From a bacterium (GTDB lineage: Bacteria > JADJOY01), in NCBI GenBank assembly GCA_046331705.1, contig JAXLQJ010000032.1, positions 1 to 64,000 of the forward strand: DNA of 64,000 nucleotides, read 5' to 3'. The notes beneath the pieces were generated by a model that saw only the letters and a program-made list of their open reading frames with translations, was not told where the DNA came from and did no database searches. The position numbers and the translations under genes were made by a program. Positions 285 through 63,634 of the stretch are shown one piece after another. The stretch's first letter is position 1. Every line of letters starts with the position of its first letter.

Positions 285-1067
285 ATGAGAGAGCTGCTGC
301 GCGTCGTCGAGGCACCGCGAACTTGCTCGTATCTGCCGAGCGAGGTCGCCTCTCTCGAATACCGAATCATCCCGGAGCTCGACCGCGAGAGCTACGCGCG
401 GATGCTCGCGCGGGGCTATCGGCGCTTCGGCATCCAGTATTTCCGTCCCGCGTGCCGCGACTGCCGGCGCTGCCGCAGCATCCGGGTGCGGGTCGCGGAT
501 TTCGAGGAGGGACGCCGTTACCGCCGCGTGTTGCGACTCAACCGGGACGTCCACGCGGTGGTGCGCGCGCCGGAGCTCACGCGCACCCATCTCGAGCTCT
601 ACCAGCGCTACCACCGCTTCATGGCGCACCATCGCGATTGGCCGCGCCACGACGGACGCGCGCAGAGCTACGCGCAGGCGTTCCTGGTGGGCGGCGAGGG
701 CTTCGCCCGCGAGGTGGCGTACTACCGCGCCGGCGAGCTGGTGGGCTGCGCGTTCATGGACGACGTCGGCGACGCCGCGTCGCTGGTCTACTTCTATTAC
801 GCGCCCGAATGGCGCGCCGCGAGCCCCGGCGTGTTCTCCATCCTCACGCAGATCCAGTATGCCCGCGCGCGCGGCTATCCGTACGTGTACCTCGGCTACT
901 GGATTCCCGAGAACCGTTCGATGTCGTACAAATCGCAATATCGGCCTCACGAGCTGTTGGTGAGCTATCCGCGCGACGGCGAGGAGCCGGTGTGGCGCGA
1001 GCCCGCGGACGACGTGGAAGCGAGCCGAGAGCCCCTCTTTTCCGCGCACGAAAGGAACCTTCCATGA
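285..1067 (+). CDS. Arginyl-tRNA-protein transferase family (ATE/Bpt-like aminoacyl transferase)
   Basis: CSYLP, GYRRFG..YFRP.C..C..C.SIR, YVYLGYWI...SMSYKSQYRP motifs; ATG at 285; ATGA overlap with the next gene. Confidence 0.9.
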   Translation: MRELLRVVEAPRTCSYLPSEVASLEYRIIPELDRESYARMLARGYRRFGIQYFRPACRDCRRCRSIRVRVADFEEGRRYRRVLRLNRDVHAVVRAPELTRTHLELYQRYHRFMAHHRDWPRHDGRAQSYAQAFLVGGEGFAREVAYYRAGELVGCAFMDDVGDAASLVYFYYAPEWRAASPGVFSILTQIQYARARGYPYVYLGYWIPENRSMSYKSQYRPHELLVSYPRDGEEPVWREPADDVEASREPLFSAHERNLP

Positions 1068-1846
1068 CGGCAACTCGACGTTTCGACGGCAAGCACGTGA
1101 TCGTGACCGGCGCCGGCACCGGGATCGGTCGCGCCATCGCCGAGCGCCTCGCCAGCGAGGGCGCGCTCCTCACGTTGTTCGCGCGCGACGCGGCGCGCCT
1201 CGACGCGACGGCCGCGGCGCTGCCCGCTGCCGCGAGCGTCCACGTCGCGTCGCTCGACATCCGCGATCGCGCGGCGGTCGACGCCGCGTTCGGCGCCGCG
1301 GCCCAGCGCAACGGCAGCGTCTACGCGTTGGTGGCGAACGCCGGCATCGGCGGCGAGAACCGGCCGGGCGACGACGATCGATTCGACGACCTGATCGCCA
1401 CCAACCTGACCGGCACCTACAACTGCGTGCGCGCAGCCGAACGCCACCTCGCGTCCGGTCCCGACGCACGCCACCTGGTGATCGTCGCGTCGGTGCTGGC
1501 GCGGATCGGCGTGCCGGGCTACACGGGCTACTGTGCATCGAAAGCAGGGCTGCTCGGCTTGGCGCGCGCGCTCGCGGCCGAGCTCGCGGAGAGCAACGTC
1601 CAGGTCAATGCGGTGTGTCCCGGCTGGGTCGACACCGAGATGGCGCGCCAGGGCATCGCCGGCATGGCGCAGGGCATGGGCACCACGTACCAGCAGGCGT
1701 ACGAGCTGGCGATGTCGGCGGTCCCCATGCGCCGAATGAGCAACCCGGCCGACATCGCCGGGTTGGTCGCGTGGTTGCTCTCGAGCGACGCGCGCGGCGT
1801 CACGGGCCAGGGGCTCGACATGAATGGCGGCTCGTTCATGATCTGA
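1064..1846 (+). CDS. Classical SDR oxidoreductase
   Basis: TGAGTGIG, ANAG, YCASK, VNAVCPGWVDT, DMNGG motifs. Confidence 0.93.
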   Translation: MTATRRFDGKHVIVTGAGTGIGRAIAERLASEGALLTLFARDAARLDATAAALPAAASVHVASLDIRDRAAVDAAFGAAAQRNGSVYALVANAGIGGENRPGDDDRFDDLIATNLTGTYNCVRAAERHLASGPDARHLVIVASVLARIGVPGYTGYCASKAGLLGLARALAAELAESNVQVNAVCPGWVDTEMARQGIAGMAQGMGTTYQQAYELAMSAVPMRRMSNPADIAGLVAWLLSSDARGVTGQGLDMNGGSFMI

Positions 1847-1866
1847 GCGGCGGGGCGGGCGCCGCA

Positions 1867-2643
1867 TCATCCCCGCGTGCTGCCGGGAGGCGGGCTGGCG
1901 GGCGGCGAGCCACGTCGCCCACGCGGGCTTCTCGCCGCCATCCATCGCGCGCAGCCCGCACGATTCGAAGAAGGCGATCTGGCTGGGCGCCAGTGACCCG
2001 GACGGTGGCTCCGACAGATCGGGATCGTGCAGGAACGACCCGATCGAGACGTCGATCGGCAGGCCGCCCACGAGCGCACGGTAGCGGGCGACGAACGCGG
2101 CCTGATCGGCCTCGTTCGCCCGCAGGAAGATCAGCGACGCACGCGACGGGTAGCCAAGCTCCGCCACCACCAGCGGATGCGAGGGCGCCGGCGCCAGCCG
2201 CGCGTAGCAGTCCGCCGGCAACGCGGTGGCGCTCCCGGCGAGGCCACCGAGCAGCGCCGGGTAGCTCGAAATCCGATCCGATCGAGCTTGGGCTCGAAGG
2301 GCGCGACCAGCGCCGCGAGGTTCTGGGCGGCGGCCGCCGGCCCGCCGAGAAAGTCGCGGTAGATGGCCTCGTACTGGAAGTGGACGAAGACGAGCGTCTG
2401 CGGGCGGATCGACCTCACTCGGTCGTAGGCTTCCCGTGCAAGCGATGCGAACGCGTCGTACTCGTCCGGATGTGCGAGGAAGTCGCCCTGAATCTCGGTG
2501 GCGAGCGAGCGACACGCGGGCCGGATCTCGCGCACCAGCCACTCGACCTCCGCGAGGAGGGCCGCACGCACCTCCGGGTTGGTGAAGCGCGCCGCGCCGC
2601 CGTATCCCGGCGACAACCCCAGCCGGTCCCGGCTCGGCCCCAC
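1867..2643 (-). pseudogene. Frameshifted, 5'-truncated glycoside-hydrolase-like (clan GH-A-like TIM barrel) gene
   Basis: Protein-like text ...SLATEIQ...AYDRVRSIRPQTLVFVHFQYE...KLDRIG in one frame continues as ISSYP...PLVVAELGYPS...EADQAAFV...CGLRAMDGGEKPAWATW in another. The switch is at about 2270. No clean start and no in-frame stop. Confidence 0.6.
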
Positions 2644-2710
2644 GACGGCAAGAGCGCGAGCACGAACGCCAATCCCCGCTGCCGTGCCTGCACGGCGATC
2701 TCGCGGGCGC

Positions 2711-3610
2711 TCAGCGGGCGAGCGGCGCGAACGCGAGCACCGCGGCAGCCCAGCGCGCGGGATCCTCGAGCATCGGGTAATGACCGAGCTCGTCCAACCA
2801 GGTCAGCGCGGCGCCCGGGATCTCGGCAGCGAGCGCTTCGGCGATCGCGGGCACGGCGATCGGATCGCGCCGCCCCCACAGCACGTGCGCGGGCCGGTCG
2901 AAGCGCGTGAGCGCCCCGATCCAGCGATTCCAGAACCGCACCCGTTCATCGAGATAGGACGAGATGGGCGCCAGGCGACGCCGCCCGTCGTTCAACGAGA
3001 CCGCCTCCCACAGCAGATCGAGCTCGGTCTCGCCGACGGCCTGGGGCCGCCCGAAGATGCGCCGTAGCTGCAGCTTGAAGACCGGGCGGCTTCCCAGCGC
3101 CGCGAACGTGGGGCCGACGAGCTTGCTGCGCAGCAACCGCTGCGGCAGCGAGAGACGCGCCAGCTCGATGTGAACGCTGCCGTTCGCGAGCGTCAGGCTC
3201 TCGATCTCCACCGGAAGCCCGCCGCGCTCGCGCCGCGCCACCAGCTCGGTGGCCACGCTGGTGCCGTAATCGTGCGCGAGGACGTGACCGCGCTCGACGC
3301 CCAGCGCCCGCCACACGGCGAGCGCCACCTCCGCCTGTTCGAGCAGCGAGTACGAGTAGTCCGCGGGCTTGTCCGAGAGCCCGAATCCCAGGTGGTCGTG
3401 GGCGATCACCCGATGGCGCTCGGCGAGCGGCGCGAGGACTGCCCGGAAATCGAGCGAGCAGGTCGGAAAGCCATGCAGCACCAGCAGCGGAGGTGCGTCG
3501 CGCGGGCCCGCCTCGACGACGAAGACCGCGCGGCCGAAGACGGAGACATACCGCCCTCGGTCGCGCCAGGCGGCGAGCTCGGGCGAGATTCCGGGGGCGG
3601 GTCGAGTCAT
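2711..3610 (-). CDS. Alpha/beta hydrolase (epoxide hydrolase/MEST-like)
   Basis: HGFPT, GFGLSDKP, AHDYG nucleophile elbow, WGRRDP, GHYPMLE. Confidence 0.9.
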   Translation of the reverse strand: MTRPAPGISPELAAWRDRGRYVSVFGRAVFVVEAGPRDAPPLLVLHGFPTCSLDFRAVLAPLAERHRVIAHDHLGFGLSDKPADYSYSLLEQAEVALAVWRALGVERGHVLAHDYGTSVATELVARRERGGLPVEIESLTLANGSVHIELARLSLPQRLLRSKLVGPTFAALGSRPVFKLQLRRIFGRPQAVGETELDLLWEAVSLNDGRRRLAPISSYLDERVRFWNRWIGALTRFDRPAHVLWGRRDPIAVPAIAEALAAEIPGAALTWLDELGHYPMLEDPARWAAAVLAFAPLAR

Positions 3611-3923
3611 TCGCGCCTCGTGGGGCGCGGGCTCGCCGCGCCGGAGCCGCAAGCTACCACGACGTCGGCGCACGCCCCCTGGCAGACACCCGGATCGCCG
3701 CGGCCACGCGCCCATTCGGGACGCGCGGCTCGGGAGCCCGGGCTCGGGTCGCCTTGACCCGCTCGGAAACCGCCTGGTACGCTCGAAACGAGTCGTCGGG
3801 GGGACGGCGGGCAGTCAGGAAGTGCAAGTGGTTCGATGGTCTTCGCGGTTCCGAATACGTATCCCCTCGATCCGTCCGAAGTCGAGCGTGGCCAGTCGCG
3901 GCCGGGGCCGCTGGGTGGCGAAG

Positions 3924-4694
3924 ATGATGTTTCGCGTTTTCTCACACCAAGACATCAGCCAGACCGGGACGACACCGCGCGCGACGCCGCGCACGTCGCG
4001 CCGAGTCGCCATGACCTCGTGGCTCGCGGGCGCGCTGCTCGCCGCCAGCTCCGCCACCGCGCTCGCCACGACGATTCCCAACGGGGCGCGACCCGACAAC
4101 GGCGAGACCAACGAGGTCGGGATCACCATTACGCCCGAATCCCCGGTGCTGAGCCCGCGCAACGCCACCTCACAGATCCAGCCCGCCAGCGTTCTCTACC
4201 TGACGTACGACACGGATACCCACCTGCTGACCGTCCAGAACGCCGATTGGTACGGCTCGTCGGTGACTTTCAACTTCGGTCAGTTGCTGCAGGTCACCGC
4301 GAACGGCCTGCGGGTTCGCAGCACCTCCGACATTCCCAACGCGCCGACGCCGGTCGTGAGCGTGAACCCGAGCACGGGTGCGTTCTCGAACCTCAACGTG
4401 CCCGTGCTGTTCACGGCCAACGTCCAGCTCAATCAGAATCCGACGATCATCGCCGTGTCTGCGCAGACCACCGTGGTTCTCGCCGGAACCCTGTCCGTCG
4501 ATAGCGGCACGGGGGCGATGGCGCTCACCGACGTCACCGGCACCTACGGCGATCTGCCGGTCGTGCTGGGAGGATTCGTGCTGCAGGTGAGCGGATCGTT
4601 CGCCTTCAACTTCTCGGCAGGCCCGACGGATTTCGTCTTCCGCGATGGATTCGACGTCGGGGGCATCTCCGGGTGGACTTCGCACGTCCCCTGA
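3924..4694 (+). CDS. Secreted beta-rich hypothetical protein, paralog 1 (start may be ATG 4011)
   Basis: Signal peptide WLAGALLAASSATALA; Thr/Asn/Val-rich; ends FVFRDGFDVGGISGWTSHVP. Confidence 0.8.
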   Translation: MMFRVFSHQDISQTGTTPRATPRTSRRVAMTSWLAGALLAASSATALATTIPNGARPDNGETNEVGITITPESPVLSPRNATSQIQPASVLYLTYDTDTHLLTVQNADWYGSSVTFNFGQLLQVTANGLRVRSTSDIPNAPTPVVSVNPSTGAFSNLNVPVLFTANVQLNQNPTIIAVSAQTTVVLAGTLSVDSGTGAMALTDVTGTYGDLPVVLGGFVLQVSGSFAFNFSAGPTDFVFRDGFDVGGISGWTSHVP

Positions 4695-4703
4695 ACGAGG
4701 TCG

Positions 4704-5450
4704 GTGAACATGCACAACTCGCAGCACTCGCGCTCACGTTCCGCTCGGACCCCGAGCACGCGCTCTTCGTGGCTGCCGCCGCGCAGGGTGACGCCGCTGG
4801 TCGCGGCGATCATGCTCGCGATCGGAGGCTCGGCTCCGACGGCGTCCGCGACACCGGTCTCGGTCCAGCTCACGCCCACCAACGGCCAGACGAATCAAGC
4901 GGTGCTCACCGTGCGGATCTTCTCGTCGCTCACCGCGACCAGCCTCGTCGAGTCGACCAGCACGCTCGACGTCGACTACGACCTCGCGACCCACGAGCTC
5001 ACGCTCACCGCGGCCTCGCTCGATGGCACCGACGTCCACTACGGCTTCGGGATCGGCCCCGTCGACGGCAAGAACATCAACGTGTCGCTCGCCGCAGCCT
5101 CCACGCCAGTCGCCGTCGATCCGGTCACGGGTGCCTTTTCGGGGCTCAGCGTCGACGTGCTGGTGGCGGCGGACCTCTACTACAACAACAGCCTGATCCA
5201 GAGCGGCACCACCTTCACGACACTCAATAATCTCACCGGCAAGCTCACCGTCGATCCCTTCGGCCACGTCGCCGGCACCAACATCGTCGGGACGATCCCG
5301 GAAACCGGCTACCCGATCCCACCGCTTCCCGGCAGCGTGTACTTGAGCGGAACGCTGACCCTCAACTTCACGGGCAGCCTGCCGGGCGTCGTGTTCCTGG
5401 ACGGCTTCGACGACGGCAACTTCACCGAGTGGAGCAGCCACGTGCCGTGA
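4704..5450 (+). CDS. Secreted beta-rich hypothetical protein, paralog 2
   Basis: Signal peptide LVAAIMLAIGGSAPTASA; ends VVFLDGFDDGNFTEWSSHVP. Confidence 0.82.
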   Translation: MNMHNSQHSRSRSARTPSTRSSWLPPRRVTPLVAAIMLAIGGSAPTASATPVSVQLTPTNGQTNQAVLTVRIFSSLTATSLVESTSTLDVDYDLATHELTLTAASLDGTDVHYGFGIGPVDGKNINVSLAAASTPVAVDPVTGAFSGLSVDVLVAADLYYNNSLIQSGTTFTTLNNLTGKLTVDPFGHVAGTNIVGTIPETGYPIPPLPGSVYLSGTLTLNFTGSLPGVVFLDGFDDGNFTEWSSHVP

Positions 5451-53907: not shown

Positions 53908-55002
53908 TCACGCCGCGGGGCCCGCTCCGCGGGCTCCCGCCGTCTCGTTCGCGACCACCCAGTCGTCCACCCTCGCCCACTGCTCGTGGAGCCACGCCCG
54001 GCGGCCGGCGTCGTCGCGCGGGATCTCCGCGAACGGCACGCGCCAGAACGCCACCCGCAGCACCAGATCGTTGAGCCCGCCCGCCATGAACTCGCGGAAG
54101 CTCATGGCGCGCTCGAAGCCGACGTGGGCGCAGAACACCACGTCGGCTCCGGGGTTGCGCTCGAGGAGCGCGACCGGGCCGGCGAGCTTGGGCGGCAGCA
54201 CACGGCGTAGCCGCTCGGCCCGCGCGAGCAGATCGGCGTCGCCCTTGGCTGCGATCTGCTCGAGCGCGCGGCGCCGCTTCTCCGGCGTGAAGCGAGTGCC
54301 CTCGGGATAGATCAGCACGCCGTCCGCCGGGCCGAGCGCGCAGGTGAGTCGCAGCACCTCGGCCAGCGCCCGCTCGGTATCTCCCACCCCACGCCGCACG
54401 AAGCCGTTCGGCAAGCGCTGGCCCACGATGTCGAGACACGGATCCCAGAGCAGCTCCGACTTGAGCACGTAGCGCAAGCACACACCGAAGCGATCCGAGA
54501 CCAGCACCGCCGCGAGCACCGTGTCCGCCGTGCTCAGGTGCCGGATGAAGAAGAGCATCGGCCCGCTCGCGGCCGCGGCGTGGTTCTCGATCTCCACGCG
54601 CCATCGAAAGATGCGGCGCGCGCCGTCGAAGAGTGTCCGGGCCCACCAGCGTTGGAGCGCGAAGTTCCAGCGCAGGAAGCGCCGTTCCGCGCGGCCCGGG
54701 AAGACGGCGTCGCCGAGCCACACCGCGAACGCGGACCAGATGCCCGCCAGCTCGCACGAGAAGTAGAGCGTGAAGAAGCGCAGCGCGCGGGTCGCGACGG
54801 CGTGTCCGCGCACCCGATCGACGACCCACCCGGCCAGGAAGGCGGGCACGAAGAGCACCACCAGCGCCAGCGCGATCCCGTGATACGCGGCGATCGTCAA
54901 CGCGCGACGTCGCCAGCGTTGGCCGGTGGGCTCTGGTGGTGGTCGAGGAGGAAGCTCACATCCTTCGGCGAATGCGCGGGACGCCGTGCTCTCGGTGCTC
55001 AA
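53908..55002 (-). CDS. Lysophospholipid acyltransferase (PlsC-like); probable TTG start
   Basis: RHLSTADT (HX4D), YVLK.EL..DP, IYPEGTRF; AGGAGG upstream of TTG 55002. Confidence 0.85.
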   Translation of the reverse strand: MSTESTASRAFAEGCELPPRPPPEPTGQRWRRRALTIAAYHGIALALVVLFVPAFLAGWVVDRVRGHAVATRALRFFTLYFSCELAGIWSAFAVWLGDAVFPGRAERRFLRWNFALQRWWARTLFDGARRIFRWRVEIENHAAAASGPMLFFIRHLSTADTVLAAVLVSDRFGVCLRYVLKSELLWDPCLDIVGQRLPNGFVRRGVGDTERALAEVLRLTCALGPADGVLIYPEGTRFTPEKRRRALEQIAAKGDADLLARAERLRRVLPPKLAGPVALLERNPGADVVFCAHVGFERAMSFREFMAGGLNDLVLRVAFWRVPFAEIPRDDAGRRAWLHEQWARVDDWVVANETAGARGAGPAA

Positions 55003-55285
55003 ACCGCCAACCCCTCCTACCGTGCCACGGCGAAACGTAATCGACCCAGCGGGCGCGGGCACTCGTGCCCGGCAGCCGAGCGAGCGATTCGCGGCGAGGG
55101 CCGCGCTCGCTCGAGCTCCCCTCGGCCGCCCGTGGCCCGTGGACGCGCTCGGCGCACGATGGGATGCTCGCTCCCGAGCGCCACACCGTGCGCTCGCCAG
55201 CGCGCGCAGGCGCCGGCGCGACCACCCAAGCGCGGCGCAAAACCTCACCCGCACGTCGGAGCCGATCAGGTACGATCGTCGACTC

Positions 55286-57979
55286 ATGCGATCCGACTTG
55301 CTCGACAAGCCTCCGGTCGCGACCGCGAGCGATGCCGCCAGCCGTCCGCGAGTGCGTCGCTTCGCGTCGCTGCTCGGCGAGGTGAGCGTCGCGCTGGCGA
55401 TCGCGCTGCTCGTCGGTCGGCTGCTCTCCGCCGTCGTGCCGCCGCTGGCGGGCACGGTGCTCGCTCAGATTCGCGCACTCGGCGCGCTCGGGTTTCTTTG
55501 CTTCGGCGTGGCCGTCGCCGAGCTGGCGCGAAGTCCGAGCCCGCGGCGGCTGCGCGTCGCCGCCCCGACGCTCGCCCTCGCCATCCTCGGCGCGTTCGGC
55601 GTCGCCGCCGCGCTCCCGCCGTTGCGCCAGTTCGCGCTCGTCGAGTGGCTGGTGCGCAACCGACTGGCGGCCGCGCCAGTCACCGCCGCCAGCGACGTGC
55701 TGGCGGCGGCGGCGCTGCTGGAATTGCTGCTCCGACGCCGACCGCGGCTCTTCCAGATGGCGGCGTTCGTGATGCTCTTCGTCGGCGTCGTCTCCATGCT
55801 CGGTCTCACGCTCTCGGCCCGGGAGATCACCGAGGTCCTGGTGTTCCGCGAGATCCACGTGATCGGCGCGATCGGCGACGTGATCATGGGGGTCGGGCTG
55901 GTGTGCCTGCGTCCCGAGGTGGGCTTCCTCGCGCTGGTCACGCGCAAGGACCCCACGGGAGCGCTGGCCCGCCGCATCGCCGTGGGGCTCCTCACGATCC
56001 CCCTCGCGACGGTGCTGATCGACCGCCTCGGCACCCACCAATCCGGACTGTGGGGGGACCACTTCGGGCAAGCGCTCAACGCGACGCTGCAGATGACGCT
56101 CTTCGCCGTGATCCTGTGGGTCGGCGTGGAGGCGCTCGACCGCACCTCGCACGCCCGCAGCCAAGCCGAATCCGAGCTCGCGCAAGCGCGGATCGCGTAC
56201 CGCAACATCGTCGACACCATGGGCGAAGGGGTGTGGGTCTTCGATCAGGACATGCGGATCACGTTCGCGAACCGGCGCCTGGGCGAGATGCTCGGTTTCG
56301 AGCTCCCGGAGCTCGAGGGGCGACGGCTCGAGGAGTTCGTGCTCGCCGAGGATCTGGACGCGACCCGCATGCGGATCGAGCGGCGCAAGGCGGGCATCCG
56401 CGAGTCGTTCGACCAGCGGCTGGTGCGCAAGGACGGCTCGCTCCTGTGGGCGATCATCAACGCGAACCCGATGCTCGACGAGCAAGGCCGCTTCACGGGC
56501 TCGCTCGGCACGCTCACGGACATCACCGCGCGGCGCGCTGCCGAGGATGCGCGCCGCGAGAGCGAGGACCGCTTCCGGCAGATCGCCGAGCACGTGAGCG
56601 AGGTCTTCTTCGTGAGTCAGATCGATCCGCCACGGCTGCTCTACGCGAACACCGCGTTCGAGCGGATCTGGGGGGTCTCGCTCGCGACTCTCGCCCACAA
56701 CCCGAACGCGTGGATCGAGTCCATCCACGCCGACGACGTCGCGAACGTGAAAGCCGCGCTCGCTGCGTGCCACGCCCAGCCCGACGTCCCGTTCGACGTC
56801 CGCTACCGGGTGGTGCGTCGCGACGGATCGATCCGCTGGGTCCACGACCGGGGCCGCTCGTTGCGCGGTCCCGACGGCCGTCCGCACCGCGTGGTCGGCA
56901 TCGCCACCGACGTGACCGACCTGGCACTCGCCGAGGAGCGGCGCTCGCTGCTCATGAGCGAGCTCGACCACCGCGTCAAGAACACCCTTGCCACCGTGGT
57001 GGCGCTCCTCGACGTGACGATCGAGAACGAGACCGACCCCACCGCGCTGCGCGATGCGCTCACCAGCCGCATCTACGCCATGGCGCGCACCCACGACGGG
57101 CTGGCGCGGCTGCGCTGGGAGGCGGTTCCGGTGGCGCGCCTGGCCGAGCTCGCGCTGGCGCCCTGGCTCGGGTTGCCGACCGAGCGGATCACGCTCGAGG
57201 GCGATCCCGCGCGCCTGCCGGCGCGACTGGCCACGCCGCTCTCGCTCGCGCTCAACGAGCTCGCCACGAACTCGCTCAAGTACGGCGCCTTGACCTGCCC
57301 CAGTGGGCACGTGCGCGTGACCTGGCAGAGCGCCGACGGAGGGGATCTCTGCATCTCGTGGGTCGAGCGCGGCGGCCCGACGCCGCGACCGCCAGCGCGT
57401 CTCGGCACCGGGCTCACGTTGATGCGCGACCTGGTGGAATACCAGCTCCACGGCACGCTCACCGTCGCGTTCGCTGACGAGGGCGTCGAGGTCTCGATCC
57501 GCTTTCCGCTTCCGCGTGCCTCGAGCGACGTCGAGGCCTCGTCCGTGCGGCGGACGCCGCTGCCGACGACGCCGTCGACCGACGTCCGCTCCCGCACCCT
57601 CGCGGGTGTGCGCGTGCTGGTGCTCGAGGACGATCCGCTGCAGGCCCGCATGCTCTCACGCCAGCTGGCGCGCATGGGCTGCGAGGTGGCGGAGCTCGCA
57701 TCCACGGTCCAGGCCGCGCTGCGTTGCATCGAGCAAGACTCGCTCGACGGCGCGGTGCTCGACATCAACGTCGGCGGATCGTCGAGCCTGCCCGTGGCGA
57801 ACGCGCTGCTCGATCGCCGCGTGCCGTTCGTGTTCGTGAGCGGGTACGCGCTCTCGGAGGCCTTGCCGGCGGCGCTGGCGCGCGTGCCGCGGCTCACCAA
57901 GCCGGTCGAGCCCGCCGAGCTCGAAGCGTTGGCCAAGCGCCACTTCGCCCGCGGCGCGCCGCAGGCCGAGCCCTCATGA
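55286..57979 (+). CDS. Membrane PAS-PAS HWE-type histidine kinase with a C-terminal receiver
   Basis: TM region; two PAS/PAC domains (DIT, DVT); ELDHRVKN, NELATNSLKYG, W.E.GGP; REC LEDD..LDIN..SGY..KP. Confidence 0.9.
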   Translation: MRSDLLDKPPVATASDAASRPRVRRFASLLGEVSVALAIALLVGRLLSAVVPPLAGTVLAQIRALGALGFLCFGVAVAELARSPSPRRLRVAAPTLALAILGAFGVAAALPPLRQFALVEWLVRNRLAAAPVTAASDVLAAAALLELLLRRRPRLFQMAAFVMLFVGVVSMLGLTLSAREITEVLVFREIHVIGAIGDVIMGVGLVCLRPEVGFLALVTRKDPTGALARRIAVGLLTIPLATVLIDRLGTHQSGLWGDHFGQALNATLQMTLFAVILWVGVEALDRTSHARSQAESELAQARIAYRNIVDTMGEGVWVFDQDMRITFANRRLGEMLGFELPELEGRRLEEFVLAEDLDATRMRIERRKAGIRESFDQRLVRKDGSLLWAIINANPMLDEQGRFTGSLGTLTDITARRAAEDARRESEDRFRQIAEHVSEVFFVSQIDPPRLLYANTAFERIWGVSLATLAHNPNAWIESIHADDVANVKAALAACHAQPDVPFDVRYRVVRRDGSIRWVHDRGRSLRGPDGRPHRVVGIATDVTDLALAEERRSLLMSELDHRVKNTLATVVALLDVTIENETDPTALRDALTSRIYAMARTHDGLARLRWEAVPVARLAELALAPWLGLPTERITLEGDPARLPARLATPLSLALNELATNSLKYGALTCPSGHVRVTWQSADGGDLCISWVERGGPTPRPPARLGTGLTLMRDLVEYQLHGTLTVAFADEGVEVSIRFPLPRASSDVEASSVRRTPLPTTPSTDVRSRTLAGVRVLVLEDDPLQARMLSRQLARMGCEVAELASTVQAALRCIEQDSLDGAVLDINVGGSSSLPVANALLDRRVPFVFVSGYALSEALPAALARVPRLTKPVEPAELEALAKRHFARGAPQAEPS

Positions 57980-58716
57980 GCGCCGACTGGATCGTGCTCT
58001 CCGATCTGCACGAGCACACCGCGCACCTGCGCCACCTCGCCGCGGCCATTCGCGACGCCGCCCTCGTGGTGCTGGCCGGAGACCTGACCATGTTCGGCGG
58101 CCAGCGCGAGGCGGCACGCGTCGTCGACGACGTGCGCGCGCTCAACCCGCGGGTCGTCGCGGTTCCCGGCAACACCGACCATCGACCGGTGCTCGACTAC
58201 CTCGAGGCCGAGCGCTTGAGCCTGCACGCACGCTCCGTCGAGATCGACGGAGTCGCGCTCTACGGGGTCGGTGGCTCGAACCCGACGCCCTTCGGCACTC
58301 CCTTCGAGCTCTCCGAGGACCAGATCGGCGCGCATCTCGCCGCCGCTCACGATTCCATTCGCGACGTCCGCGTGCGTGTGCTGGTGAGCCACGCGCCGCC
58401 CTTCGAGAGCGGCGTCGACCGCTTGTGGACGGGACGTCCCGTGGGCAGCCGAGCGGTGCGCGCCCACGTGGAGCGCACGCAGCCCAGCCTGGTGCTGAGC
58501 GGCCACATCCACGAAGCGCGGGGCGTCGGCAGCGTCGGCTCGGTGCCCGTGCTCAATCCGGGGCCGTTCGTCGCGGGCGGGTTCGTGCGCATCCAATTCG
58601 ACGCCGGCGAGCCGCGCGCGACCTTCGAGCGGATTCGGCTGGATCGCGGCGAGCGGGTCGTGGGCGAGGTCGGACAGGTGGCCCGCAAGCTGCGTCGCCT
58701 TCCGCGCATGCGATGA
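57976..58716 (+). CDS. Metallophosphoesterase (Icc-related)
   Basis: SDLH, AGDLT, PGNTD, SHAPP, GHIHE, NPGP; ATGA overlap with the kinase gene. Confidence 0.88.
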   Translation: MSADWIVLSDLHEHTAHLRHLAAAIRDAALVVLAGDLTMFGGQREAARVVDDVRALNPRVVAVPGNTDHRPVLDYLEAERLSLHARSVEIDGVALYGVGGSNPTPFGTPFELSEDQIGAHLAAAHDSIRDVRVRVLVSHAPPFESGVDRLWTGRPVGSRAVRAHVERTQPSLVLSGHIHEARGVGSVGSVPVLNPGPFVAGGFVRIQFDAGEPRATFERIRLDRGERVVGEVGQVARKLRRLPRMR

Positions 58717-58827
58717 GCGGCGTCGCCCGGCGCGCCCGCGCGGCAGCGCGACGTCCTCGCGCTGCCGGCCACCCCACCTCCGCCGCCGGCCATCGGCCCG
58801 GCGCTTCCCGCGTGGCTCGGCGCGGGA

Positions 58828-59490
58828 TCAGGATGCGGCGGCGAGCGCGCCGATCGGGCAGCTCAGACCCGTGCCGCCCAAGCCGCAATAACCGCCGGGA
58901 TTCTTGTGCAGGTATTGCTGGTGGTAGTCCTCGGCGAAGTAGAACTCGGGTGCGTTCACGATCTCGGTGGTGATCGGTCCGAAGCCGGCACGGCTCAAGA
59001 GCGGCTGAAACGCGTTCTTGGACGCTTCCGCAGCGGCCCGTTGCGCCGGCGAGTACACGTAGATCCCCGAGCGGTACTGGGTGCCGACGTCGTTCCCCTG
59101 GCGCATGCCCTGGGTGGGATCGTGGCTCTCCCAGAAGACGCGCAGCAGCTCGTCGTAGCGCACGCGGGCGGGGTCGAAGATCACCCGCACCACCTCGTTG
59201 TGGCCCGTCATGCCGCTGCACACTTCGCTGTAGGTCGGATTGGGCGTGAGTCCGGCGGCGTAGCCGGCGGCGGTCGTGTGGACACCCGCCACCGACCAGA
59301 ACTTCTTCTCGGCGCCCCAGAAGCAGCCCATGCCGAACATCGCCGCCTCGAGGCCGTTCGCGAACGGCTCGGTCATCGGTGTTCCGAGAACCGCATGGCG
59401 CGGCGCCACCGGCATGCGCTCGGCACGCCCGGGCAGCGCCTCGCCGGGGCGCGGCAGCAAGAGTTTCTGGGGATGAAAGAAGAGAGCCAT
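58828..59490 (-). CDS. msrA: Peptide methionine sulfoxide reductase A
   Basis: [41 protein letters not shown]. Confidence 0.97.
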
Positions 59491-59649
59491 CGGCGTTTCC
59501 TCGTCGTGCGTCGATCGATGGTCGGCAGAATACCCGGTCGCGCCGCGCACCGCGGCCTGACACGTGTCGCGCGCCGTTGCGCGGTTGCCGAGGCCGGGCG
59601 GCTCGTCCACGCTGGGCCGAGCCGCGAGCCCAGCGAGCGAAGGATGGCC

Positions 59650-60141
59650 ATGAGTGAGGCGAGCTCTCCCCGTTTCTGCTCGCGGTGCGCCGCGCCGCTT
59701 CGGCTCGTCCACGACGGCGAGCGCGAGCGGCTCACCTGCAGCTCCGCGGAGTGCGGCTTCGTCCACTACGACAACCCCACACCGGTGGTGGCGGCGCTGG
59801 TCGAGCACGCGGGGGCGGTCGTGCTGGTGCGCAATCGGGGCTGGCCCGAGACCTGGTTCGGGCTGGTGTCGGGCTTCCTGGAACGCGGCGAGACCCCGGC
59901 GGACGGCGCGCTTCGCGAGGTGCGCGAGGAGCTCGGCCTCGATGGGCGCGTGGTCGGCCTGATCGGCGCCTACGCGTTCGAGATGCGAAACGAGCTGATC
60001 GTCGCGTATCACGTCGAAGCCGAGGGCTCGATCGCGCTCTCCCCCGAGATCGCGGCGGTGAAGCGAGTCGCCCCCGAAGCGCTTCGCCCGTGGCCCTTCG
60101 GCACCGGGTTCGCCGTGGCGGATTGGCTGGCGCGCCGATGA
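59650..60141 (+). CDS. NUDIX hydrolase with an N-terminal zinc ribbon
   Basis: FCSRC...C....CGFVHYDNP; Nudix box [22 protein letters not shown]. Confidence 0.92.
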
Positions 60142-61376
60142 ACCCGCCCGCGCCCATGGCACCGCCGATCGACGCCCGCCTCGTGGTGGTCATGGTGGGG
60201 CTGCCGGCGCGCGGCAAGACGTACACGGCGCGCAAGCTCGCCCGCTACCTGGGATGGCTCGGCTACCGCGCGCGGGTCTTCAACCTCGGCAGCTACCGGC
60301 GCGAGCGGGTCGGCCCCAACATGCCGGCGGCCTTCTTCGACCCCGACAACCTGGAGGCCGACGCGATCCGCACCGACCTCGCGATCCGCGCCCTCGACGA
60401 CCTGCTCGGCTGGCTGCGCGACGGCGGCGGACAGGTGGGGATCTTCGACGCCACCAACAGCACCATCGAGCGGCGCCAGCGGGTGCGCCACCAATGCGAG
60501 CGCGCGGGTATCGCCGTGCTCTTCGTGGAGCTGATCTGCGACGAGCCGTGGGTGATCGAGGCGAACATCCGCGAGACCAAGGTCACCTCGCCGGATTACC
60601 AGCACCTGACACCGGACCAGGCCGCCGACGACTTCCGCAGCCGCATCGCCAACTACGAGCGCGCCTATCAGCCGCTCGGCTCGGACGAGGCGAGCTACGT
60701 GAAGGTGATCAACGGCGGGCGCAAGATCGTGGTCAATCGGATCGAAGGGTACGTGCCGGCCCGCATCGTTCAGTTCCTGGTGAACCTGCACACCGTGCCG
60801 CGGCCGATCTGGCTCACGCGGCACGGCGAAAGCCTGGACAACGTGCGCGGCGTGATCGGCGGCGACTCGTCGCTGAGCGACCGCGGGCGCGCCTACGCCC
60901 AGCGGCTCTCGAGCTTCGTCGACGAGCACGGGCCGCCGGTGCTGCACGTGTGGACGAGCACGCTCAAGCGCGGCATCGAGACCGCGTGGGCGCTCGGCCG
61001 CTCGTTCCTGCCCATCAAGGCGCTCGACGAGATCGACGCCGGGATCTGCGACAACATGACCTACGGCGAGATCGAGGCGCAGATGCCCGAGGAGTTCGCC
61101 GCACGCAAGGCCGACAAGCTCCACTACCGTTACCCGCGCGGCGAGTCCTACGAAGACGTGATCCGCCGCCTCGACCCGGTGCTCGCCGAGATCGAGCGCC
61201 ACCGCGAGCCGGTGCTGGTGATCGGCCACCAGGCGGTGATCCGCTGTCTCTATGCGTATCTCGCCGACGTGCCGCGCGACCAGGTGCCGTTCGTGGGCGT
61301 GCCGCTGCACACCCTGATCGAGCTCACCCCCAAGGCGTACACGGTCGAGGAGAAGCGCTACCCGCTCGGGCCGTGA
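60138..61376 (+). CDS. Bifunctional 6-phosphofructo-2-kinase/fructose-2,6-bisphosphatase (PFKFB-like)
   Basis: Kinase domain [40 protein letters not shown]. Phosphatase domain [32 protein letters not shown]. Confidence 0.93.
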
Positions 61377-61395
61377 CCGGGCGCTCGCGGTTCGC

Positions 61396-62052
61396 TCAGC
61401 GCGGCGAGTCTCGCTCGAGCCAGGCGCGCGTCACGCGATCCATCTCGCCGAGACTGGCGGCGAAGAAATGGTCCGCGCCGGCGAAGGTCACCAGCTCCGC
61501 TCGCGCGAGTGGCGCGAGCGAGCTTGCGAGCCGCGGCGGTGGCGCGATGCGGTCGTGCTCGCCAGCGAAGACCAGCATCGCTCGCGCCAGCACGGCGAGT
61601 GCCGTGGCGTCGAGCATGAGCGCCGGCGGCGCGACCAGCACCAGCCGATCGACGCGCGAGGCTTCCGCCGCCGCCCGCACCGCCGCCATCGCGCCCCACG
61701 AGTAGCCGCCAGCGACGAGCGGTCCGGGCACGCGGCGCGCGGCCTCGCCGAGCGCGGCCAGGTAGTCGGCCACGGCCGCTCCGGGGTCGTCGGTGGCGCG
61801 GCCCGCGCTTCCCTCGACTCCGCGCCAGTTGAAGCGCAAGACAGCGAGGCCCGCCGCGCGCGCCGCGCGCTCGAGCGTCACGAGGATCGGCGAGTCGAGC
61901 GTGCCGCCGTAGAGCGGATGGGGCGGCGCGAGCACGCAAGCGCGCTCCGTCGCTGCGCGCGGCTCGAGCCAACGCGCTTCGAGGTCCGGGGTTGCCCCGC
62001 CGCCGAGGATCCGGATCGGCGTCGCCGATCCCGCCGCTTCGATTCCATTCAT
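61396..62052 (-). CDS. Small alpha/beta hydrolase
   Basis: PPHPLYGG, LRFNWRGV..S.G, GYSWG, GEHD, ADHFF. Confidence 0.88.
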   Translation of the reverse strand: MNGIEAAGSATPIRILGGGATPDLEARWLEPRAATERACVLAPPHPLYGGTLDSPILVTLERAARAAGLAVLRFNWRGVEGSAGRATDDPGAAVADYLAALGEAARRVPGPLVAGGYSWGAMAAVRAAAEASRVDRLVLVAPPALMLDATALAVLARAMLVFAGEHDRIAPPPRLASSLAPLARAELVTFAGADHFFAASLGEMDRVTRAWLERDSPR

Positions 62053-62218
62053 CGTGGATCGCTCCTCCCGCCACCCCCGCGCATCCGTTTCCCGGCGCGC
62101 CCGCGCGCGCCGTCGCGGTACGCCGCCCACGACACGAAGTCCTTGCGCATGCCGGTGCGACTCCCTACGATCCCCGTGTCCGTCACCGCGCTCCCGCGAC
62201 GACGACGAGGCTCGGCCG

Positions 62219-63634
62219 ATGTCCGAAGCGATCACCGCGCGCGCCGCCGCCAGCGTCGTGCTCATCGACGACAGCGACGCGATCCGGTCGGCACTCAAGC
62301 TCGCGCTCGAGGACGCTGGCTACCGGGTGCTCGACGCGGCAACCGGCGAGGCGGGGCTCAAGCTGGTGCTGACGTCGTCTCCCGACGCGCTCGTCACCGA
62401 CTACGAGCTGCCGGGCATCAACGGCATGGCGGTGATCCATCGCGTGCGATCCCACCCCACGGTCCAGAGCCTGCCGTGCATCCTCCTCACCGGCGCCGAC
62501 GCCGCCCCCGCCGAGGCGCGCGGCCTGGAGGGTGGCGCAGATGCCTACATCCGCAAGACCTCCCCACTCGAGGTGATCGTGGCGCGAGTGGGCGCGTCCG
62601 TGCGCCGCGCGGGATCGACGGTCACGCCCACGCCCACCGCGCAGCCGAACGACGGCGCCGCCGGCGCTCGCCGCGTGCTGGTGATCACCGCGGACGCGGC
62701 GCGCTCCGAGCTCCTCTTCGTGCTGGCGGGGCTCAAGCACCAAGGGCTCGAGGTGCGCATCTCGTCGGAGCAACCGACCGAGGCCGAGCTCGGCGCCGTC
62801 GAATGCGTGCTGCTCGACCGCACGGACGCGCTCGCCGCGCGCATCGCGGCGATCAAGGCTCACGCGCAGAGCGCATCGGTGCCCGTGGTGGTGCTGGGCA
62901 GCGAGGACGACCCCGACGGTGTCGTTCTCGCGCTGCGGGCCGGCGCCGACGATTGGGTGGCGCTGGCGAGCGGGCTCGACGTCATCGCCGGCCGGATCCG
63001 TGCCCATCTGCGTCGGCGCCAGGCCGAGGACCATCAAGCCCACCTGCGGGAGCAAGCGCTGCAGCGCGAGCTCGCCGACCGCGAGGCGCGCGCCCAGCGG
63101 GAGATCGCCGACGCACGCGCCGAGCTGCTCGCCGAGCTCGCCCGCAAGAACGCCGAGCTCGAGGAAGCGAACTCCAACCTGGCGGCGAGCCTGCGCGAGG
63201 TGCGGGTGCGCGACGAGCAGTTCCGTACCGTCGCTCGCTGCGTACCGGGCGTGGTCTATCTGATGCGTCACGGCGAGCATCGGACACCGCTCTTCATGAG
63301 CGTCGCCGTGGAGGTCCTCACCGGCCATCGCGCGCCCGATTTCGTCGCGGGCCGCGTGAGCTGGACGAACCTCGTCCATCCCGAGGACCGCGACCGCGTG
63401 TTCGCCCGCATCGATTCCGCCATCGGCCAGCGCAAGCCCTTCGAGACCACCTACCGGATCCAGCACGCCAGCGGTGCGTGGCGCTGGGTGGAGGAGCGCG
63501 GCCGCGCGATCTTCGACGAGGACGAGGTTCGCTGCGTGGGCGGCACGGTCTTCGACGTGACCGAGCGGCTCGAGGCCGAGGAAGAGCTCGAGCGCTTTCG
63601 CGCGCGTCAGCGCCCCGCGACCCCTCGCCCGTGA
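62219..63634 (+). CDS. Signalling protein: receiver - pseudo-receiver - coiled coil - PAS
   Basis: IDDS..VTDYELP..LTG..K; degenerate second REC; heptad-rich linker; PAS with VHPEDR, WRWVEERG, DVTER. Confidence 0.85.
   Translation: MSEAITARAAASVVLIDDSDAIRSALKLALEDAGYRVLDAATGEAGLKLVLTSSPDALVTDYELPGINGMAVIHRVRSHPTVQSLPCILLTGADAAPAEARGLEGGADAYIRKTSPLEVIVARVGASVRRAGSTVTPTPTAQPNDGAAGARRVLVITADAARSELLFVLAGLKHQGLEVRISSEQPTEAELGAVECVLLDRTDALAARIAAIKAHAQSASVPVVVLGSEDDPDGVVLALRAGADDWVALASGLDVIAGRIRAHLRRRQAEDHQAHLREQALQRELADREARAQREIADARAELLAELARKNAELEEANSNLAASLREVRVRDEQFRTVARCVPGVVYLMRHGEHRTPLFMSVAVEVLTGHRAPDFVAGRVSWTNLVHPEDRDRVFARIDSAIGQRKPFETTYRIQHASGAWRWVEERGRAIFDEDEVRCVGGTVFDVTERLEAEEELERFRARQRPATPRP

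Follow-up and report, generated by a model that had tools for sequence, protein, structure and literature searches.

A native, core-only PFK-2/FBPase-2 gene overlapping a Nudix hydrolase gene in a sludge bacterium

The locus and its two-gene unit

We examined a 64,000-nucleotide stretch of DNA (positions 1 to 64,000 of contig JAXLQJ010000032.1, hereafter the window) from the genome of a sludge bacterium (8.17 Mb, 70% GC, 118 contigs) whose GTDB phylum comprises only six species representative genomes. Toward one end of the window lies a gene for a two-domain 6-phosphofructo-2-kinase/fructose-2,6-bisphosphatase (PFK-2/FBPase-2, or PFKFB), preceded on the same strand by a gene for a small Nudix hydrolase. 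The predicted ATGA overlap between the PFKFB start and the Nudix stop can be read directly from the sequence, and the two-gene unit is limited upstream by an MsrA gene and downstream by an alpha/beta hydrolase gene. The unit contains the following features:

59644..60141, plus strand: Nudix hydrolase gene, 165 aa (163 aa from an alternative second in-frame ATG at 59650), by Pfam NUDIX and Zn_ribbon_Nudix
59872..59940, plus strand: intact Nudix box GX5EX7REUXEEXGU, residues 77-99, by pattern match
60138..60141, plus strand: ATGA overlap, the PFKFB ATG (60138-60140) over the Nudix TGA (60139-60141), read from the sequence
60138..61376, plus strand: PFK-2/FBPase-2 (PFKFB-type) gene, 412 aa, by stop-free translation, Pfam and structure match
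60171..60797, plus strand: 6-phosphofructo-2-kinase domain, residues 12-220, with Walker A at 21-28 and FDATN at 103-107, by Pfam PF01591
60807..61343, plus strand: fructose-2,6-bisphosphatase domain of the histidine phosphatase type, residues 224-402, with RHG at 228-230, E298 and H364, by Pfam PF00300

A core-only PFKFB with both active sites intact

The original prediction described a 412-amino-acid reading frame with both PFKFB domains and intact kinase and phosphatase motifs, and profile searches agreed on each point. The 6PF2K profile (PF01591) matched the protein at an E-value of 6.2e-76 (255.1 bits, cut-off 27; 11-222 of the 223 profile positions), and His_Phos_1 (PF00300) matched the C-terminal part of the same chain at 2.8e-36 (125.5 bits against a cut-off of 21.7). 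All seven motifs named beforehand occur, each once, starting at residues 21 (GLPARGKT), 103 (FDATN), 151 (SPDY), 228 (RHGES), 298 (EID), 335 (GESY) and 364 (HQAV). The features that define PFKFB membership are all present: a 6PF2K domain and a histidine-phosphatase (branch 1) domain on one chain; the GxPxRGKT nucleotide loop, the FDATN acidic motif and the basic residues of the fructose-6-phosphate (Fru-6-P) site, which we take to be the roles of these kinase residues; and the catalytic histidine of RHG, the second histidine (HQAV) and the glutamate (EID).

The best-matching solved structure was human PFKFB3 (2AXN, 6IC0; E 1e-126, residues 10-402 aligned), with further matches to PFKFB2 (5HTK) and to the liver and testis isozymes (rat testis, 1BIF); these animal enzymes align with the bacterial protein end to end and in the same domain order at 1e-126 to 1e-115, and structures of the rat FBPase-2 domain match the phosphatase half at 3.8e-61. 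The motifs of the nucleotide loop, the Fru-6-P site and the phosphohistidine site are identical between the bacterial and animal proteins. In the alignment with PFKFB3, identity covers Walker A, YRRE, FDATN, the lysine of E(T/V)K before SPDY, and SPDY itself in the kinase half, and RHGE, EIDAG, YRYPxGESY and HQAV in the phosphatase half, and these same residues are invariant across 23 aligned bacterial homologs. Both the kinase and the bisphosphatase reactions are plausible for such a protein. Enzymes of this family pair head to head as homodimers by way of their kinase domains.

The bacterial protein differs from PFKFB3 in having LKR (R278, invariant in bacteria) where PFKFB3 has LKS, and an arginine at this position is presumably typical of isozymes with strong bisphosphatase. 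It also differs from the animal enzymes in consisting of the 412-residue core, and reads as a core-only form that lacks the long eukaryotic N- and C-terminal tails; in the animal isozymes, these extensions carry phosphorylation sites. The 120 bacterial homologs listed are similarly compact at 398-467 aa (median 416), while the 150 best representatives at 50% identity, which are mostly eukaryote-named where they are named, range from 298 to 1112 aa (median 570).

Distribution and phylogeny of bacterial PFKFB

Bacterial homologs had been expected to be only sporadic, an expectation that did not survive database searches: the family is abundant in bacteria and already annotated, and the window gene is real but not new. 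When a single genome of each species was scanned for two motifs, 388 relatives emerged among 400 matched stretches, mostly in Myxococcota. A Myxococcota label was attached to 61 of the best 80 genome loci; 21 of these records are labelled Sorangium, with 19 complete genomes that include So ce56, and others come from Minicystis rosea DSM 24000 and Polyangium. When that phylum was sampled evenly, 82 of 401 genomes contained a 6PF2K domain at E<=1e-20; all six genomes of the host phylum had the domain, and none of 35 genomes drawn from other families throughout Bacteria had it over the cut-off. Among metagenomic proteins, a word-based search that scored 7999 candidates gave at least 4052 clusters (90% identity) at E<=1e-20, with the best-scoring clusters after those of the host phylum being 57-62% identical to the window protein, and an exhaustive search of 50%-identity representatives gave 1252 clusters at E<=1e-30. 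Some homologs already carry the NCBI name "6-phosphofructo-2-kinase/fructose-2,6-bisphosphatase" (Minicystis, Methylomirabilota) or "fructose-2,6-bisphosphatase", and bacterial homologs have been on record for two decades, going by 2004 work cited in PMC9721465. The window gene itself is therefore no discovery, as databases already contain thousands of copies.

The window protein resembles the PFKFBs of Myxococcota (Sorangium cellulosum So ce56, Minicystis rosea DSM 24000, Polyangium sp. and metagenome-assembled genomes, MAGs) in length class, domain pair, sequence (54-62% identity) and clade, and differs from them in belonging to a separate, very small GTDB phylum and in sharing an operon with a Nudix gene. 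Phylogenies, all unrooted and with weak backbones, placed the bacterial sequences together. FastTree recovered 24 labelled bacterial rows out of 126 rows in one clade (support 93), and a short IQ-TREE search of 61 rows under a site-mixture model recovered 17 bacterial rows as a clade (Shimodaira–Hasegawa-like approximate likelihood ratio, SH-aLRT, 97), in which the window protein fell within a seven-row clade (support 97) with Polyangiaceae- and Myxococcota-labelled sequences; a second Myxococcota cluster lay outside the bacterial clade with weak support. Constraining 19 bacterial rows to one clade gave a log-likelihood 49.9 above that of the free short search (approximately unbiased test, p-AU 0.991), so that a single clade of these rows is not rejected. 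When 23 Myxococcota sequences were added, the most divergent included, FastTree placed 41 of 42 bacterial rows in one clade (84 rows, support 96).

The sister of the bacterial clade was a Phytophthora-containing group (support 88-91). For these comparisons, 30 tree representatives were named by exact look-up, including a bird PFKFB3, dipteran, choanoflagellate and four fungal enzymes, as well as Acytostelium, Rhodelphis, a diatom, Phytophthora, Spironema, Pygsuia and one further Myxococcota cluster. We conclude from the trees that bacterial PFKFBs are essentially one clade, with the host phylum nested among Myxococcota-labelled sequences. One Myxococcota PFKFB (locus L117, genome G302) fell outside this clade with the Phytophthora group at a weak support of 83, and may represent a separate transfer or a long-branch artefact.

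Several records at the edges of this distribution deserve caution. The loci L059, L061, L020, L080, L058 and L071 come from genomes labelled Nitrosotalea, Nitrosopumilus, Rickettsiales, Limnocylindria or Verrucomicrobiia, yet have a GC content of 65-73%; several of these mislabelled-looking MAG contigs carry almost identical PFKFB genes (tree branches of 0.05-0.1), and the "Nitrosotalea" genome is 4.6 Mb. We make no claim of archaeal or rickettsial PFKFB carriers from the Nitrosopumilus, Nitrosotalea and Rickettsiales bins, whose labels look unreliable at this GC content. Separately, P0123, a protein of 1069 aa found in the transcriptome of a marine eukaryote, contains two complete PFKFB units in tandem, at residues 63-489 and 594-1043.

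Candidate targets of the signal

Fructose-2,6-bisphosphate (Fru-2,6-P2) made by a PFKFB would need enzymes to receive it, and we found candidates in the host genome. Its only match to PF00365 is a phosphofructokinase gene on contig C29 that we assign to the pyrophosphate (PPi)-dependent type, as it exceeds the cut-off of the NCBIfam equivalog NF041103 (616 bits, cut-off 550); a class 1 fructose-1,6-bisphosphatase (FBPase; contig C79; 500 bits, cut-off 368) and a GlpX are encoded as well. Class I FBPase was present in all six genomes of the host phylum, as was a PPi-PFK match, which exceeded the cut-off in five and was split over two contig ends in the sixth.

In the Myxococcota sample, class I FBPase was found in 74 of the 82 genomes with PFKFB and 138 of the remaining 319 (odds ratio 12, Fisher p 1e-15), whereas GlpX was found in none of the 82 and in 71 of the 319 (p 2e-08), counts that ignore shared ancestry, come from genomes of unknown completeness and may only reflect clades. 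Because GlpX shows the opposite pattern, the enrichment of class I FBPase is not just a matter of genome completeness. This co-occurrence fits the eukaryotic rule that Fru-2,6-P2 inhibits FBPase-1, as given in PMC9721465.

In three Myxococcota genomes (G173, G113 and G283), PFKFB divergently adjoins a PPi-PFK-like gene that, at 537-547 bits, falls slightly short of the NF041103 cut-off of 550:

L102, ~2605-5035, divergent: full-length PFKFB and PPi-PFK-like pair
L103, ~2589-5033, divergent: full-length PFKFB and PPi-PFK-like pair
L104, ~610-3186, divergent: full-length PFKFB and PPi-PFK-like pair

About 74-160 nt separate the matched parts of these head-to-head genes, an arrangement that suggests a common control region. 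Plants activate PPi-PFK with Fru-2,6-P2, and both the head-to-head pairs and the host gene set (PFKFB, class I FBPase and a PPi-PFK as the only PFK) resemble plant-type control. The host PPi-PFK differs from the plant alpha/beta enzyme in being a short Thermotogales-type equivalog (NF041103), and we know of no bacterial PPi-PFK that responds to Fru-2,6-P2.

Proposed function

The original prediction proposed that this organism may make Fru-2,6-P2, and this is still the most reasonable reading of the gene. We consider it likely that the window encodes a native, intact bacterial PFKFB of the core-only form, belonging to a Myxococcota-centred clade and making and degrading Fru-2,6-P2, with a lineage-specific link to the Nudix gene. 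The kinase half would phosphorylate Fru-6-P at C2 using ATP, and the phosphatase half, working through a phosphohistidine, would reverse this step, which would allow the cell to set its Fru-2,6-P2 pool. The likeliest receivers of the signal, judging by co-occurrence and by gene adjacency in other genomes, would be class I FBPase and perhaps PPi-PFK. The PFKFB gene would be co-transcribed, and probably translationally coupled, with that for the small zinc-ribbon Nudix hydrolase in the host phylum alone.

Besides the possible clade effects in the co-occurrence counts, several observations weigh against this proposal. PPi-PFK is not enriched with PFKFB in the Myxococcota sample (15 of 82 genomes against 94 of 319), which leaves it unsupported as a general PFKFB partner; the PFKFB carrier Sorangium So ce56 gave no NF041103 match at E<=1e-150; and the adjacency of the two genes is limited to 3 of the 82 genomes, two of them close kin (83% identity) and the third 59-63% identical. 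No PFK or FBPase gene was seen within 4 kb of PFKFB among the best 80 loci. Promoter-like sites were absent from a scan of positions 59300-61700, and the one terminator-like site there, on the minus strand, is no more than shuffled sequences give. In its favor, metatranscriptome contigs from two runs in two studies were 100% identical to the gene over 60297-60543 and 60305-60570, inside the kinase domain; they give a weak hint of PFKFB expression, and contigs from RNA libraries are no proof of transcription. Of the words sampled from the locus, six RNA runs contain only 9-13%; the two examined gave one short contig each, and RNA cover was absent elsewhere along the locus, which speaks neither for nor against expression. 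Regulation by a riboswitch of a described family is not indicated, as an Rfam scan of 58500-62000 at E<=0.1 returned no match. Finally, the literature searched yielded no biochemistry of a bacterial PFK-2/FBPase-2, neither an enzyme activity nor a Fru-2,6-P2 measurement for any bacterial PFKFB, though the comma-containing name of the compound was unsearchable as such.

This lack of a characterised bacterial PFKFB in the literature searched leaves room for a different function, in which the fold has been kept for another job: the enzyme would act chiefly as a phosphatase, or as a kinase and phosphatase on a different sugar phosphate, and Fru-2,6-P2 would be no regulator in these bacteria. The missing eukaryotic regulatory tails are in keeping with such a change, as are the annotations: NCBIfam has no PFKFB equivalog model, the top matches there are other histidine phosphatases that all score below their cut-offs, and many homologs are named by JGI only as "broad specificity phosphatase PhoE/predicted kinase". 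However, about half of the residues are identical to PFKFB3 over both domains, the motifs lining both active sites are identical, and they are invariant in 23 bacterial homologs, as would be expected if selection had acted on the same two reactions. We thus regard a changed function as unlikely, and favor synthesis and breakdown of Fru-2,6-P2.

The Nudix partner

The upstream gene encodes a 165-aa protein with an N-terminal four-cysteine zinc ribbon (C12, C15, C32, C37) ahead of a Nudix domain, with Pfam matches to NUDIX (PF00293; 9.9e-16, 58.4 bits against 21.1) and Zn_ribbon_Nudix (1.9e-07). The Nudix box, for which we assume the signature GX5EX7REUXEEXGU, lies within the Nudix fold, as expected for a member of the superfamily. 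Its top matches in the PDB were at 2.4e-08 (8ZB3, an NAD(+) diphosphatase) and 5.1e-08, with others to the zinc-ribbon Nudix protein 3CNG and to NUDT12; its top NCBIfam match was also NAD(+) diphosphatase, and JGI labels many close homologs NudC. The order of a zinc ribbon followed by a Nudix fold is shared with NudC-like NAD(+)/NADH diphosphatases (8ZB3; NUDT12, 6O3P) and with 3CNG, but the window protein differs from NudC in having no NudC N-terminal domain (165 aa against 263 profile positions). We rejected an assignment to NudC sensu stricto: the score on NF001299 was 54.4 bits against a cut-off of 158, and the protein has GAYAFEM where 8ZB3 has SQPWPFP. A SQPWPFP(xS) motif downstream of the Nudix box presumably marks NADH pyrophosphatases.

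The original prediction also held that the Nudix protein may act in the same system as PFKFB, and named conservation of the gene pair in related genomes as a check. Conservation was seen inside the host phylum only: the Nudix gene lies directly upstream of PFKFB on the same strand in all six genomes, which span two genera and Nudix identities down to 70%, with the two genes overlapping in three genomes and separated by gaps of ~17-50 nt in the other three by tblastn coordinates. Outside the phylum, none of 76 PFKFB loci had this partner within the flanking DNA examined. The Nudix family itself is large, with 1160 homologs at E<=1e-10 that occur widely without PFKFB, including some that share 63-72% identity and come from MAGs with Myxococcota, Bacteroidetes and Rhodothermales labels. 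Clustering of 2291 open reading frames (ORFs) from 82 loci revealed no conserved PFKFB neighbor of any kind beyond synteny among ~18 Sorangium genomes. A Nudix-box scan of the PFKFB loci picked up unrelated Nudix genes (142-153 aa, no zinc ribbon seen) in L020 (6064-6525) and L080 (4348-4776), on the same strand as PFKFB and ~0.3-0.9 kb downstream of it; these two loci are closely related, and the proximity is probably chance.

Were Nudix and PFKFB one signalling system, the Nudix enzyme might, for example, process a nucleotide-linked precursor or effector of a sugar-bisphosphate signal, and the co-oriented genes with their 4-nt ATGA overlap, retained throughout the phylum, are what such a system could look like. 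However, six genomes this closely related count as little more than a single evolutionary event, the 76 other bacterial PFKFB loci have neither this partner in the flanking DNA examined nor any widely conserved neighbor, and the scan for Nudix boxes gave only the unrelated pair of genes. As the coupling is confined to the host phylum and the Nudix family is widespread without PFKFB, a shared pathway is not indicated, and we think it quite improbable; the link looks like a lineage-specific operon arrangement and not a conserved two-component system.

A native bacterial gene

The genes on either side of the unit, and beyond, are bacterial:

58828..59490, minus strand: MsrA (peptide methionine sulfoxide reductase), divergent upstream neighbor, by Pfam PMSR at 2.1e-60, with an approximate start taken from the ORF
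61396..62298, minus strand: alpha/beta hydrolase, convergent downstream neighbor, by Pfam Abhydrolase_1 at 4.9e-09

Other flanking genes encode a metallophosphoesterase, a large PAS/PAS/HWE histidine kinase with a receiver domain (54926-57979, on one side of the locus) and, on the other side at 62054-63634, a response regulator that carries a PAS domain; no link of the kinase or the regulator to PFKFB is evident.

The codon usage of the PFKFB gene is host-like, as had been claimed. Its GC content at third codon positions (GC3) is 0.954, compared with a reference value of 0.889 +/- 0.035 from 1340 long ORFs of the host genome, and its relative synonymous codon usage (RSCU) correlates with that of host ORFs at 0.96, neighboring genes giving 0.90-0.98. 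A check for misassembly found contigs from two other public runs, belonging to two studies, that span the junction of the two genes (59314-60415 and 59315-60304), and 14 DNA runs from 9 studies of sludge, wastewater or digesters contain 70% or more of the words sampled from the locus, with positions 59600-61400 present almost identically; one of these runs may be the source of the window. The PFKFB gene is native to the host bacterium, as first proposed. Eukaryotic contamination or a chimeric assembly, which could be suspected because the top solved-structure matches are all animal enzymes, is set aside as vanishingly unlikely given the host-like codons, the bacterial genes flanking PFKFB on the contig that holds the window, the same arrangement in all six related genomes and the contigs of two independent runs that bridge the junction, and the nearest relatives of the protein are themselves bacterial (57-95% identity).

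Implications for Fru-2,6-P2 signalling

The switch between glycolysis and gluconeogenesis that Fru-2,6-P2 provides is taught as exclusive to eukaryotes. Both PFKFB active sites are kept intact in about a fifth of the Myxococcota genomes sampled and in a separate small phylum, and because of this a bacterial version of the switch probably exists and is simply unstudied. The association with class I FBPase and not GlpX, along with the head-to-head pairing with PPi-PFK in some genomes, adds leads that can be tested, and the culturable PFKFB carriers Sorangium and Minicystis allow Fru-2,6-P2 to be measured.

The bacterial PFKFBs also bear on the source of the eukaryotic regulator. A much bolder reading is that Fru-2,6-P2 signalling is a widespread system of Myxococcota-like bacteria whose targets are class I FBPase and, in certain lineages, PPi-PFK, and that the kinase-phosphatase fusion arose in that bacterial lineage and was donated to stem eukaryotes; we hold this to be a long shot. 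It is compatible with the trees, since the bacterial sequences form about one clade and the tree is unrooted. Myxobacterial contributions to eukaryotes have been argued for other pathways in two sources, as a role in the origin of steroid biosynthesis (PMC8237579) and as the origin of plasmalogen biosynthesis (10.1101/2025.10.10.681575).

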